The translations under genes and the position numbers were made by a program. The notes under the pieces were generated by a model. That model was not told the origin of the DNA, did not search any database, and saw only the letters and a list, made by a program, of their open reading frames with translations. From IMG/VR virus record IMGVR_UViG_2711768166_000003: a DNA stretch of 37,277 nt; one strand, written 5' to 3'. Below are positions 16,073 to 22,354 of this stretch, in pieces; positions within the stretch are counted from its first letter, which is position 1; the number at the start of each line of letters is the position of its first letter. The stretch comes from a virus (Duplodnaviria; Heunggongvirae; Uroviricota; Caudoviricetes).

Positions 16073-17248
16073 TTAGCTGTCTCTATATCTTTTGAGTTCA
16101 TCATAATTTGCCTGACTCAATTTTATCACAATTTCGCATTTGTTGTCAGTGAGAATTACAGGCTTATTTGACTTTTCGTCTCCAATAGCTCCACGCATTA
16201 TTTTCAACTTAAAATTATTGTCGTTATCTGCCACTTCAATTGTAAGCGCGCTTTCAGCTGCTTTAGGAGTTGGTTCAAATTGAGGGTCAATCTGGAAACC
16301 ATTAAGATTAACAAAATCGACAAACGTTCCCTTACATTTGTGTGAATCAGTCAGGCATGAGTCAATTATTTTTGAAATATCCTCTATCTTAACGGACTTA
16401 TTTCCGTGTTTATCTTTTGATTTTTTTTCCAGTAAGGATTTAACTTCATTGTCAATAGTATCACGCAGTACACGACCGAGTGAGTTTTTACTAGCAAAAA
16501 TATCTATAGCACTGAATAATTGCTGAATGCTTCTTTTATTGTCCGAATCATGTCGGCAACCTAATGAGTCTTTGAAAAAATCGCTTTTAGATTTACCTTG
16601 CAAGAAATGTACATATGAGTCACCCTTGTTTTCTGGATAACTGGCTTCGAATAAAGTTAAATCGAACATCGCAGCCTGCCGTAAGGCATCGGTATTAATT
16701 GGATTTAATCTTGTTGGGGTCAACTTATCCGAATCAAAGTCATAGGCGCTTTGTTTATCAACCATTACGATTAGAAGTTTCCCCAAATCCTCTGGTTCGG
16801 TAGACTTATAGTGGATGAAAACAACGCTCCCCCCCTGAAGTTGGGCAACTCTCGATTCGTTATTAGCATTATGTTTAAGCTTCTCTATTATAGCTCTAGA
16901 TAAATCAATGAATTCATTATTTTTATTAATGTATTTTTTTAGGATCGTAGGAATGGATGAAGGGTTGTGATCTGAGTCTAGGAAGTTATGAAATTTGTTT
17001 TTTCGGCTAAATTTTTTCTCAATTCTGGTTATGAATTCAGATGTGACTTCATTTTTTAGATCCCAAACTTCACCTAATCGATAATCAAATGCTCTTGAAT
17101 CATTTTTTTCAAGATTTGCTGTTACAGCACCAATAGGAAAGTACGATTGTTTGCCCAGCACTACAACATGAGGCGTGGCACCGCATTTATCGCAAGCTAC
17201 AGTTGGGTCGTCAAGAACATTGCCACATTCTAAACAAGTTATATCCAT
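16073..17248 (-). CDS. AT-rich cargo gene A: N-terminal zinc ribbon plus NA37/YejK-like nucleoid-associated domain
   Basis: 391 aa; N-terminal CLECG-x12-CDKCG; central region aligns by eye to YejK (GGSVVFIHY vs GGFVLFCHY; ...DLT...FL.GK...). Family assignment is from memory, not a search. Confidence 0.7.
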   Translation of the reverse strand: MDITCLECGNVLDDPTVACDKCGATPHVVVLGKQSYFPIGAVTANLEKNDSRAFDYRLGEVWDLKNEVTSEFITRIEKKFSRKNKFHNFLDSDHNPSSIPTILKKYINKNNEFIDLSRAIIEKLKHNANNESRVAQLQGGSVVFIHYKSTEPEDLGKLLIVMVDKQSAYDFDSDKLTPTRLNPINTDALRQAAMFDLTLFEASYPENKGDSYVHFLQGKSKSDFFKDSLGCRHDSDNKRSIQQLFSAIDIFASKNSLGRVLRDTIDNEVKSLLEKKSKDKHGNKSVKIEDISKIIDSCLTDSHKCKGTFVDFVNLNGFQIDPQFEPTPKAAESALTIEVADNDNNFKLKIMRGAIGDEKSNKPVILTDNKCEIVIKLSQANYDELKRYRDS

Positions 17249-18838: not shown

Positions 18839-19129
18839 TTATGAGCAATACACCCGCGCTTCCAGCGGAGTATAAATGCCTAAAGTAATAAAACCGAGCA
18901 ATCCATTTACGAATGTTTGCTGGGTTTCTGTTTTAACAACATTTTCTGCGCCGCCACAAATTTTGGCTGCATCAACAGTTTTCTGCTGTCCAATTCCCGA
19001 AACGAAGAAATGATGGGTGATGGTTTCCTTTGGTGTTACTGCTGTCGGTTTGTTTCCAACAGTAAACGTCTGTTGAGCACATCCTGTAATAAGCATTGCC
19101 AGAGCGGCAGAAAACAACATTTTTTTCAT
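18839..19129 (-). CDS. bor: Bor lipoprotein (serum-resistance-associated)
   Basis: MKKMLFSAALAMLITGCAQQTFTV ... ETITHHFFVSGIGQQKTVDAAKICGGAENVVKTETQQTFVNGLLGFITLGIYTPLEARVYCS closely matches lambda Bor; start at the lipoprotein-signal Met, not the longer track ORF. Confidence 0.9.
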   Translation of the reverse strand: MKKMLFSAALAMLITGCAQQTFTVGNKPTAVTPKETITHHFFVSGIGQQKTVDAAKICGGAENVVKTETQQTFVNGLLGFITLGIYTPLEARVYCS

Positions 19130-19653
19130 CTTATTATCCTGCATTGTTAAAAACGGCAGAATCCTATGTGACAACAATTAAACGATAGTTAAATGGATTG
19201 ATGAAAATTAAAACTATATAGGTGTACGGTCAGACTATTGGAGGTAGTCAGGATTTGAATGTCAGTCTGTTGTCGGCATTCTGGCAATGCAATTTGGATA
19301 AAGCGGGGATTAAAAAGATAGAAGCGAGCCGGTCAGGTAGAAATGAATCAGGCTCAAAGTGAAGCGGAAAAGGTCTGTGGCACAAACTGATGCTGCCATA
19401 ATTACAGCCTGATGACTTGTGGAATGAAACATGTTGAACTTCCTTAATTGATGTGATTCGAGTGAGGAAGGCATTCTGTCCCTCTATAGTGTCCATTAAT
19501 TCAAACGGGAAATTTGTCTCATGCGTGAGACAAGTCTCTCCATTAGTGAGTTGTATTGATTGCGACTCTTCAAAGAATCCATTACTGCGTTGATGAAAAA
19601 GGTTTACTACGAATGAAGGCAGCTATTTCGCTGGTTTCTTCATTGGAGTACAT

Positions 19654-20004
19654 ATGCCCCCACGAACCCCAAAAGCCTGCCGTGTTCGCGGCTGCCGCTC
19701 TACAACCACGGACCCTTCAGGCTACTGCGAAAGCCACAAAAGCGAAGGCTGGAAGCAATACAAACCTGGACAATCCCGTCATCAGCGCGGCTACGGTTCG
19801 AAGTGGGACAGTATCCGCGCGCGTGTCCTGAAGCGTGACAAAGGCCTGTGTCAGTTATGTCTGCGTGCTGGTGTGGTGCGTGAGGCGAAGACCGTTGACC
19901 ACATCATCCCTAAATCGCATGGCGGCACTGATGCCGACTGTAATCTGCAGAGTCTGTGCTGGCCGTGTCATAAGGCGAAGACGGCCCGTGAACGGTTGAA
20001 GTGA
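19654..20004 (+). CDS. HNH endonuclease (packaging-associated)
   Basis: 116 aa; HNH motif DHIIPKSHGGTDADCNLQSLCWPCHKAKT; directly upstream of the small terminase gene, as in HK97-like cos phages. Confidence 0.9.
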   Translation: MPPRTPKACRVRGCRSTTTDPSGYCESHKSEGWKQYKPGQSRHQRGYGSKWDSIRARVLKRDKGLCQLCLRAGVVREAKTVDHIIPKSHGGTDADCNLQSLCWPCHKAKTARERLK

Positions 20005-20010
20005 TAATGA

Positions 20011-20071
20011 TTCTCAACTGCCTGAGGGGAGGGGCGGGTCAAATCCCTGCGGCCTGACGTCTTCCGGACTG
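20011..20071 (+). terminator. GC-rich hairpin with T-tract between HNH and terS (terminator and/or part of the cos region)
   Basis: GGGGCGGG ... CCCGCCCC inverted repeat with ~33-nt loop, followed by ATCGTTTTTTT. Confidence 0.45.
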
Positions 20072-20129
20072 CCCGCCCCATCGTTTTTTTATACCCGCGA
20101 AAAATGAAATTTAACCAGGAGTGCCGCAT

Positions 20130-20624
20130 ATGGCTGGAACGGCGGGGCGTTCCGGGCGTCGCCCCAAGCCAACGGCGCGCAAGGCGCTGGCCGGAAATCC
20201 CGGCAAGCGAGCCCTGAACAAAGATGAACCTGTTTTTACGCCCATCAAAGGTGTTGAGCCACCGGAGTGGTTCGCTGAAGAAGATCTCCCTCTCGCCACG
20301 ATCATGTGGCAACTGACAACCAAAGAACTCTGCGGTCAGGGCCTGCTGTGCGTGACTGACCTCGCGGTGCTTGAGCGGTGGTGCGTGGCCTATGAGTTCT
20401 GGCGACGTGCTGTGAAAAATATTGCCATACAGGGCAACACCATCACCGGCGCAATGGGCGGCAGGGTCAAAAATCCGGAGCTGACAGCCAAAAAAGAACA
20501 GGAGTCCGAGATGAGCAGCACGGGGGCAATGCTCGGACTCGACCCCAGCAGCCGCCAGCGTCTGATTGGCCTGGCGGGGCAGAAGAAAGCCACTAACCCG
20601 TTTCTGAAAATCATCGAATCATGA
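20130..20624 (+). CDS. Terminase small subunit (P27-type)
   Basis: Start ATG 20130 preceded by AGGAG (20117-20121); Arg/Lys-rich N-terminus; immediately upstream of and overlapping the large terminase gene. Confidence 0.8.
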
Positions 20625-22354
20625 GCCGGAAATCTTACCCCAACGTAAATGCTGCCAATCAGTATGCCCGGGATGTCGTGCGCGGAAAGATTGTGGCCTG
20701 CCAGTTTGTGATTCAGGCCTGCCAGCGCCATCTTGATGACCTGATGGCGGAAAAAAGTAAGTCGTTTCGTTACCGCTTCGACAAGGACCTGGCTGAACGG
20801 GCCGCCAAATTTATTCAGCTGTTGCCGCACACCAAGGGTGAGTGGGCATTCAAGAGGATGCCCATCACGCTGGAGCCGTGGCAGCTCTTTGTGATCTGCT
20901 GCGCGTTTGGCTGGGTCAATAAAGGCTCCCGGCTGCGCCGCTTCCGGGAGGTGTATACCGAAATCCCCCGTAAGAACGGCAAATCAGCAATCTCTGCCGG
21001 TGTCGCCCTGTATTGTTTTGCCTGTGATAACGAGTTCGGCGCGGAAGTGTATTCCGGTGCCACGACGGAGAAACAGGCATGGGAAGTCTTTCGTCCGGCA
21101 AGACTGATGTGTAAACGCACACCCATGCTGACGGAAGCGTTCGGGATTGAGGTTAACGCCTCAAACATGAATCGTCCGGAGGATGGCGCGCGGTTTGAAC
21201 CGCTGATCGGTAACCCCGGTGATGGTTCATCACCCCACTGTGCGGTGGTGGATGAATATCACGAGCACGCCACCGATGCGCTTTACACCACGATGCTTAC
21301 CGGGATGGGGGCGCGACGTCAGCCACTGATGTGGGCCATTACTACTGCCGGGTACAACATTGAGGGGCCGTGCTACGACAAGCGACGGGAAGTTATCGAG
21401 ATGCTCAACGGGTCGGTACCCAACGATGAACTGTTCGGGATCATCTATACCGTTGACGAAGGCGATGACTGGACTGACCCGCAGGTGCTGGAAAAAGCTA
21501 ACCCGAATATTGGCGTGTCGGTTTATCGCGAATTTTTGTTAAGTCAGCAGCAGCGTGCGAAAAATAACGCCCGTCTGGCAAACGTCTTTAAAACAAAACA
21601 CCTCAATATCTGGGTGTCGGCGCGTTCGGCGTATTTCAACCTGGTGAGCTGGCAGAGCTGCGAGGATAAATCACTGACCCTTGAGCAGTTCGAGGGGCAG
21701 CCGTGCATTCTGGCCTTTGACCTGGCGCGTAAGCTGGATATGAACAGCATGGCGCGACTTTATACCCGCGAGATTGACGGTAAAACGCATTACTACAGTG
21801 TGGCCCCGCGTTTCTGGGTACCGTATGACACGGTGTACAGCGTCGAGAAAAATGAAGATCGACGGACAGCCGAACGCTTTCAGAAATGGGTGGAAATGGG
21901 CGTTCTGACCGTTACCGATGGTGCGGAGGTGGATTATCGCTACATCCTCGAGGAGGCCAAAGCGGCGAACAAAATCAGCCCGGTCAGTGAGTCACCCATC
22001 GACCCCTTCGGGGCGACCGGGTTGTCACATGACCTTGCTGATGAAGACCTGAACCCCATCACTATCATTCAGAACTACACCAACATGTCCGACCCGATGA
22101 AAGAGCTGGAAGCGGCAATTGAATCGGGGCGCTTTCATCATGATGGCAATCCCATCATGACCTGGTGTATCGGCAACGTGGTCGGCAAAACCATTCCGGG
22201 TAACGATGATGTGGTGAAGCCCGTCAAAGAGCAGGCGGAAAACAAAATCGATGGTGCAGTTGCGCTGATTATGGCGGTTGGCAGAGCCATGCTGTACGAG
22301 AAAGAAGACACGCTGTCTGACCACATTGAGTCCTATGGGATCCGCTCGCTTTAA
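20621..22354 (+). CDS. Terminase large subunit (HK97-type)
   Basis: 577 aa; size and position typical; ATPase Walker A-like region [10 protein letters not shown] and a C-terminal nuclease-type region. Confidence 0.9.

Follow-up and report, generated by a model that had tools for sequence, protein, structure and literature searches.

The stretch of DNA analyzed here (the window) comprises 37,277 nucleotides from a virus of the class Caudoviricetes (IMG/VR record IMGVR_UViG_2711768166_000003). A gap of 125 bp (20005–20129) in the window separates a gene for an HNH endonuclease from the gene for the small terminase (terS). An earlier note, made from the sequence alone, pointed out a GC-rich hairpin and a T-tract in this gap and proposed that they either mark the cohesive end site (cos) used for DNA packaging or simply terminate the transcription arriving from upstream. 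The locus therefore raises the question of which of these functions it serves and whether the hairpin itself takes part in it. We addressed this question by comparing the gap with the mapped genome ends of related phages and with homologous loci from a wide range of hosts.

Genes and sequence elements around the gap

The gene upstream of the gap (19654–20004, plus strand) encodes a protein of 116 amino acids that matches Pfam PF01844 (E 2.2e-15) and the HNH endonuclease family PHROG 144, and its copy in a 100% identical prophage of E. coli strain EC28 is annotated as an HNH endonuclease. It is of the packaging-associated type found upstream of cos. On the other side of the gap, terS (20130–20624, plus strand) encodes a P27-family small terminase of 164 amino acids (PF05119). 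A Shine-Dalgarno sequence, AGGAG (20117–20121, plus strand), can be read 8 nt before its ATG codon at 20130, and terS of SfV is annotated from the equivalent ATG. The following gene, terL (20621–22354, plus strand), encodes the large terminase with its ATPase and nuclease parts (PF03354 and PF20441), and the protein is 26% identical to HK97 gp2 over 522 amino acids (E 2e-29). Pfam matches after terL (PF04860 and PF04586) complete the gene order as HNH, P27-family TerS, TerL, portal, and S78 (HK97-type prohead) protease. The premise of the earlier note, that an HK97-like cos lies between the HNH and terminase genes, holds here according to the order of the ORFs and their Pfam matches. A promoter scan found no sigma-70-like promoter in 19000–21000. 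With no promoter-like site between the HNH gene and terS, the expression of terS and the structural genes depends on transcription that crosses the cos site.

The locus belongs to a common type of prophage. Of 5426 complete E. coli genomes, 1121 (approximately 20%) carry the 250 bp around cos. Strains EC28 and A42 match the window at 100% identity over 19950–20200, and the EC28 copy belongs to a lambdoid prophage that adjoins icd and combines lambda-like early genes with an HK97-like head module and a contractile tail. In a megablast search of phage genomes, the cos region was 95–98% identical to those of SfV, SfI, SfII, SfIV, Escherichia phage SKA5, and Salmonella phage 118970_sal3. Two minus-strand genes upstream of the gap were also observed. 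An ORF of 391 amino acids (16073–17248) belongs to the 37-kD nucleoid-associated protein family (PF04245), has an N-terminus that looks zinc-ribbon-like by eye (CxxC...CxxC), and gave no match in PADLOC. Its neighbours are the Q antiterminator region on one side and the lysis genes on the other. The EC28 prophage, identical in other respects, has an OmpC-like porin here, and the location is a variable "moron" slot. A gene for a Bor/Iss lipoprotein (18839–19177, PF06291) is located between Rz and the HNH gene in the opposite orientation, and its copy in EC28 is annotated as the serum-survival factor Iss.

The hairpin and the T-run described in the earlier note were confirmed. A repeat search showed that GGGGCGGG (20031–20038) and CCCGCCCC (20072–20079) form an inverted repeat of 8 bp that is 100% complementary, with 33 nt between the arms. 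The 3′ arm is followed by ATCG and then by seven T residues (T7, 20084–20090). The window contains 34 distinct perfect inverted repeats of at least 8 bp with loops of 3–40 nt, compared with 18.0 ± 4.5 in dinucleotide shuffles. Repeats of at least 8 bp with arms made entirely of G and C and loops of up to 40 nt occur twice, whereas 0.14 are expected per window and approximately 0.0005 per 125 nt. Because such repeats are rare by chance, the GGGGCGGG/CCCGCCCC repeat is not random background. The local stretch nevertheless folds no more stably than its own shuffles, either as RNA (z 0.18 for 125 nt and −1.0 for 69 nt) or as DNA (z −0.6). The plus strand of the window contains ten T7 runs in all, including this one. 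A second, imperfect inverted repeat, CGCCCCATCGTT (20074–20085) and AACGGCGGGGCG (20138–20149), is matched at 10 of 12 positions and joins the cos end to codons 3–7 of terS, which encode part of a basic N-terminal arm; it is probably compositional.

The cut site and the conserved segments beside it

The 3′ arm CCCGCCCC constitutes the last eight bases of the 10-mer TGCCCGCCCC (20070–20079), which is identical to the mapped cohesive end of SfI. In SfI, run-off sequencing of both ends of the virion DNA, compared with the prophage, revealed a 10-nt gap, 5′-TGCCCGCCCC-3′ (PMC3636060). A gap instead of an overlap is the result expected of 3′ overhangs. The SfI record ends with ...CTGCCCGCCCC and begins with GTCGTTTTTTT. 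In the phiP27 record, a misc_feature "cos-site" is placed on CGCCCGCCCC, at the position aligned with 20070–20079, and the record ends of SfI, Edwardsiella phage EPP-1, Burkholderia phage phi644-2, and HK97 all align to 20079|20080. [quoted passage not shown] For the Variovorax phage VarioGold, PhageTerm called a 10-nt 3′ end, CGATCGGTTC, that resembles the CGACCGTTCC variants of two IMG/VR loci.

The cos reading proposed in the earlier note is thus right and its location exact, in that the ends of SfI, phiP27, phi644-2, EPP-1, and HK97 all align here. On the basis of this sequence and positional identity, 20024–20114 is very probably the cos site of a lambdoid prophage of the SfV/SfI/phiP27 type, in which the packaging module is HK97-like. 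The cut region is GAC|TGCCCGCCCC| (20067–20079, plus strand), as placed by the SfI run-off, the phiP27 annotation, and the record ends of the relatives. The nicks are expected at 20079|20080 on the top strand and at 20069|20070 on the bottom strand, and they would leave 10-nt 3′ overhangs; this polarity is suggested by phi644-2, HK97, and the gap in the SfI run-off. Sites of this kind are already known, and in near-identical phages their ends have been determined by experiment. The site teaches nothing new about the biology of packaging itself, and the one lead that it offers is comparative. What it provides is the physical genome ends of a very common type of E. coli prophage, in that the left end would start at 20080 and the right end would finish with the 3′ overhang TGCCCGCCCC. 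They may be useful for predicting virion genomes, for reading PhageTerm-style pile-ups, for designing cosmid-like vectors, and for detecting satellites with the same signal.

GenBank records of this phage group start at various positions off the SfI-mapped end. Those of SfV (U82619.2) and SfIV (KC814930.1) start at the equivalent of 20063, 17 nt upstream, while that of SfII starts at 20005 and that of ST64B at 20115. According to the SfI and SfIV papers, the points at which their own records were linearised are conventions, and the SfV cos is termed "postulated" in the SfI paper (PMC3636060). The record starts of SfV, SfII, and ST64B are assumed to be conventions likewise. Record ends in the SfV-type phage group should not be taken as termini.

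A site homologous to cos may also be a relic that is no longer used because the prophage is cryptic. Many E. coli prophages are defective, and the presence of the element in about one fifth of the complete E. coli genomes would be compatible with such a relic. However, the core 10-mer and the block at +14 to +35 described below are identical to those of the plaque-forming or inducible phages SfI, SfV, and SKA5. The ORFs for HNH, TerS, TerL, portal, and protease are intact, and in EC28, the 100% identical prophage comprises head and tail genes as well as a complete lambdoid early region. A relic is therefore unlikely.

To map conservation, relatives of the locus were collected by an exact search of IMG/VR for the downstream block, which gave more than 115 loci, and phages were added by BLAST or by similarity of the TerS protein. 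Identities were calculated against Klebsiella, phiP27, Pseudomonas, Burkholderia, Edwardsiella, and Moraxella phages. A G-rich box, GAGGGGAGGGGCGGGTCAAATC (20024–20045, plus strand), lies at −56 to −35 from the top-strand cut, contains the 5′ arm of the inverted repeat (20031–20038), and is 77–95% identical to its relatives. It is followed by a variable spacer (20046–20066) with small length differences among the relatives and an identity of 48–67%, the lowest of all segments. The block at +14 to +35 (20093–20114, plus strand) is 68–100% identical, although the conservation of +16 to +35 among the IMG/VR loci is partly forced by the search pattern and its unbiased support comes from the loci found by protein or BLAST searches. 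The coding flanks, namely the 3′ end of the HNH gene and the 5′ end of terS, are 54–81% identical. The G-box and the +14 to +35 block are thus islands of conservation relative to the spacer and the coding flanks.

Single columns were examined in an alignment of 25 diverse cos regions. At the cut site, A−12, C−11, and G−9 are invariant, and C−8 and C−4 are at least 90% conserved. The invariant columns straddle the bottom-strand nick (AC|YGC), whereas the flanks of the top-strand nick vary. In the G-box, G−48, G−47, A−38, and A−37 are invariant, and the counterpart in HK97 is GGGGGGGGGGATCAAATC.

The downstream block, ACCCGCGAAAAATGAAATTTAA, is near-invariant and is a candidate cosB-like recognition site for TerS, as judged from its conservation and from the layout of HK97. 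It is identical at 22 of 22 positions in Klebsiella phage ST101-KPC2phi6.3, at 21 of 22 in phi644-2, and at 20 of 22 in EPP-1; the TerS of phi644-2 has a protein identity of only 52%, though its block is almost unchanged. In HK97, the minimal TerS site is +15 to +29, Arg128 reads the G:C pair at 21, and an adjacent 9-bp A-tract is essential (PMC11331095). The HK97 record has ACCCG and a 9-bp A/T tract at +18 to +31. Numbering this record from its first base reproduced the T16, the C:G pair at 21, and the A-tract at 23–31 of the paper, which validates the alignment. In the window, ACCCG is located at +14 to +18 and is followed by CG, A5, and AAATTTAA, a HK97-like layout that lies 2–4 bp closer to the cut. 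ACCCGCGAAAAATGAAATTTAA at +14 to +35 is likely to be the TerS binding site. No sequence relation was detected between the TerS of the window and HK97 gp1.

Alternative readings of the inverted repeat and the T-run

If the repeat and the T-run are read as RNA, they resemble a Rho-independent terminator, in which a GC stem and U7 would halt transcription from the HNH and lysis region before the structural genes. The GC-rich 8-bp stem does form in the minimum-free-energy fold of the RNA, the U7 run lies downstream of it, and, with no promoter in 19000–21000, such an element could gate transcription of terS from upstream in the prophage state. However, the loop of 33 nt is much longer than the approximately 3–8 nt of this class of terminators, and the four nucleotides ATCG stand between the stem end (20079) and the T7 run, where 0–2 nt are expected. 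A terminator scan of 19000–21000 called nothing at the site, and the RNA fold is no steadier than its shuffles, as described above. The stem is not kept in the relatives and shows no compensatory changes. In lambdoid phages, Q antiterminates late transcription, and the transcripts have to pass through cos before they reach the head genes, which also counts against a terminator.

The T-run itself points in the same direction. It occupies +5 to +11 (20084–20090, plus strand) and belongs to a conserved tract, rich in A and T, that lies immediately within the left end of the genome. In this tract, T is at least 90% conserved at +7 to +10 and A+12 is invariant in the 25 aligned regions. The tract of the relatives reads AATTTTT, GAATTTAA, or an A-run (GAAAAAAC in locus L024 and AAAAAAAATTTTT in Moraxella). 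L024, Moraxella phage Mcat30, and HK97 have an A-run or mixed A/T sequence in place of the T-run, which is incompatible with a conserved U-tract; a role in DNA shape fits the tract better. The terminator suggested in the earlier note is thus not supported, and we regard it as very improbable.

The repeat may instead be functional as DNA, by forming a cruciform or by providing two-fold half-sites, the G-box and the cohesive end, that are read by a dimeric nuclease. An all-G/C repeat of 8 bp is rare by chance, as noted above, and in the divergent locus L110, which has the cohesive end CGCGCCCTCC, the G-box is still complementary over 8 nt. When boxes and ends were permuted among loci, the native combinations scored 4.92 for complementarity against 4.71 ± 0.10, a value reached by 2.8% of the permutations; however, this signal is small and the sequences are related. 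The alignment of the 25 cos regions revealed no covariation. Across the eight stem pairs, 66.5% of the cells are paired, compared with 72.3% after shuffling of columns and 62–65.5% when the registers were slid by 1–3 columns, and a double change was seen in one stem pair only. Several relatives have lost the pairing with no compensation: GGGGGAGG occurs with CCCGCCCC in L032, L054, and L120, GGGGCGGG occurs with CCCGCCTC in L027 and L029, and G10 occurs with CGCCGCCAAA in HK97. Furthermore, the symmetry center (approximately 20055) lies away from the cut, the 33-nt loop would make cruciform extrusion unlikely, and the DNA fold is close to that of its shuffles. The chance that the repeat acts as DNA in this way is very slight.

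A third possibility is a tRNA-like remnant of an attachment site or another structured RNA. The segment GGGTCAAATCCC (20036–20047) superficially resembles a T-arm and T-loop. ARAGORN found no tRNA or tmRNA in the whole window, and Rfam gave no match in 19400–20700 at E values up to 10. The integrase and the icd junction of the identical prophage in EC28 are located about 19 kb away, which argues against an attachment remnant. The tRNA-like or noncoding RNA idea was dropped after the empty Rfam and ARAGORN scans, and we give it practically no weight.

The hairpin as a functional element is therefore not supported, since its stem shows no covariation and is lost with no compensation in relatives, and only the 3′ arm lies within the cut site. 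Among the matches listed, only members of the SfV/phiP27 subgroup and, as a sole exception, L110 have a G-box that is complementary to the cohesive end over 8 nt. The two arms are independently conserved, and their pairing is not kept up in relatives; thus, the inverted repeat arises from a G-box that faces a C-rich cohesive end. The preferred reading remains a cos site, whose conserved parts happen to be complementary in this subgroup.

Modular cos loci and comparison with known systems

A search for the left part of the HK97-type site (GGGGGGATCAAATC...GACCGCCGCC) revealed no fewer than four kinds of right part attached to it. The first is the HK97 block followed by a gp1-type TerS, the second is the SfV/P27 block followed by a P27 TerS, and the third is CCTTTTTTCACACCGCCGCAGGTTAGAAAAC followed by a TerS with a P27 N-terminal motif, as judged by eye; others make up the remainder. 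Mosaic cos loci of this kind were seen in L017, L049, L051, L123, L137, L142, L145, L158, L189, and L249, and a recombination joint appears to lie at or beside the cut. The right part changes with the TerS lineage, while the left part stays the same. Because the right parts follow TerS whereas TerL is homologous between the window and HK97, we infer that the right part is specific to TerS and that the left part, consisting of the G-box and the nick region, is read by something shared. The cos site is thus modular, and its left part recurs in lineages ranging from E. coli to Burkholderia and Moraxella.

Only the G-box upstream of the cut is under-described. No paper in the literature open to searching contained the sequence strings of the G-box or the TerS block, and a cf-PICI preprint does not mention cos subsites. 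A G-rich box followed by T(C/A)AAA(T/G)(C/T) was observed approximately 35–55 bp upstream of the cut from HK97 to Burkholderia, Pseudomonas, and Moraxella phages, whatever the TerS lineage; examples are L012 and L013 (HK97), L135 (Moraxella Mcat30), L136 (Pseudomonas SC_8), and L138 (Klebsiella ST147-VIM1phi7.2). We tentatively suggest, as a possibility rather than an expectation, that the G-box (GGGGAGGGGCGGGTCAAATC, −56 to −35) is a distinct and required cos subsite common to sequence-unrelated TerS lineages (HK97 gp1, P27, and the third type). If so, it would be read by the conserved TerL/HNH nuclease side and not by TerS, and it could serve as a cosQ-like signal for termination or nick positioning on the last-packaged end. 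The invariant AC|YGC and the variable flanks of the top-strand nick would then imply that one nick is specified by sequence and the other is measured 10 nt away.

In L099, a 4.6-kb locus, the G-box, TGCCCGCCCC, and ACCCGCGAAAAATGAAATTTAA are all kept (approximately 2195–2295), and no HNH or terminase match was found among the eight ORFs scanned. This locus may be a phage satellite that borrows the packaging signal. Beside its cos lies a small gene with matches to PHROG 994 and to "transcriptional activator" families. Other IMG/VR loci with no immediate terS were considered as satellites and dropped, so that L099 is the only candidate kept; in L107, for example, a longer leader is followed by ORFs that resemble terS (164 aa), terL (576 aa), and portal (409 aa) in size and order. 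Vibrio phage H8 (L134) and Streptococcus phage phi-SsuFJSM7_rum (L139) were found by tblastn with the P27-family TerS, and the annotation of their terS genes says no more than small terminase. No recognisable G-box/cos pattern was found upstream of terS in either phage, and the HNH and terS genes of H8 are 6 nt apart. Therefore, the cos architecture is not universal to this TerS family.

From these comparisons, the following course of packaging can be proposed. During lytic growth, TerS and TerL, helped by the adjacent HNH protein, would recognise cos on concatemeric DNA. Two nicks 10 bp apart, after 20079 on the top strand and after 20069 on the bottom strand, would produce 10-nt 3′ overhangs, with TGCCCGCCCC on the right genome end, and packaging would then run rightward, into terS and beyond. 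Three conserved parts make up the site. The first is the cut region, GAC|YGCCCGCCCC|. The second is the +14 to +35 block ACCCGCGAAAAATGAAATTTAA, most likely the TerS site, with a GC element beside an A-tract as in HK97. The third is the G-box at −56 to −35, which is most likely a subsite for the TerL/HNH nuclease side or for termination, like lambda cosQ.

Among known systems, lambda is comparable in its general plan. Its cosQ-cosN-cosB is likewise a tripartite signal, in which the nick site has the TerS site to one side, toward the end packaged first, and an upstream element to the other, toward the end packaged last, and the G-box may be likened to cosQ by analogy only. In lambda, the overhangs are 5′ and 12 nt long, TerS is of the Nu1 type and is served by R sites and an IHF site, and there is no HNH partner. 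A search for the IHF consensus with up to one mismatch found none in 20005–20129. A lambda-type cos with an IHF-assisted cosB was rejected on the grounds of the P27-family TerS (PF05119), the lack of an IHF site, and the 3′ overhangs of the relatives.

The closest systems are the Shigella serotype-converting phages SfI, SfV, SfII, and SfIV, whose DNA is 97–99% identical over the shared part. The 10-mer TGCCCGCCCC, the T-run, the ACCCGCGAAAAATGAAATTTAA block, and the order of HNH gene, cos, and terS are all shared with the window. The window differs in a few substitutions in the spacer, in the 3′ flank of the HNH gene, and at base +1, which is A in the window and G in SfI. Moreover, the window is an E. 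coli prophage, with its identical counterpart in EC28 adjoining icd, rather than a Shigella phage, and its cut is placed by homology. The Stx2e phage phiP27, the founder of the "P27 family" of TerS, has the order HNH-like L34, cos, and terS, as in the window, its G-box (GGGGAGGGGCGGGTCAAATCCCTGC) is identical, and its cos 10-mer CGCCCGCCCC differs in the first base of the overhang, which is C in phiP27 and T in the window. Its downstream block, ACCCGCGAAATTAAAAATTT, is identical at 16 of 22 positions, and its terS DNA is 57% identical.

The Burkholderia phages phiE125, phi1026b, and phi644-2 share the order of HNH gene, cos, and P27-family TerS, and they have the 10-base 3′ extensions 5′-CGCCCGCTTC-3′ at the aligned position and an almost identical +12 to +35 block (21 of 22 positions). 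They differ in having a betaproteobacterial host, a TerS that is 52% identical, the G-box variant GGGGAGGGGGGTGAAAAAGTC, and no complementarity between the arms.

HK97 has the 10-nt 3′ overhang that is predicted for the window. Its TerS site is located at +15 to +29, and its cleavage is stimulated by the HNH protein gp74. How TerL and HNH place the two nicks is a question in HK97 for which the modularity of cos offers a testable target. The two sites differ in the cohesive end, which is CGCCGCCAAA in HK97 and TGCCCGCCCC in the window, and in the junction of ACCCG and the A-tract, which is 2–4 bp closer to the cut in the window. The distance from the end of the HNH gene to the cut is 319 nt in HK97 and 75 nt in the window.
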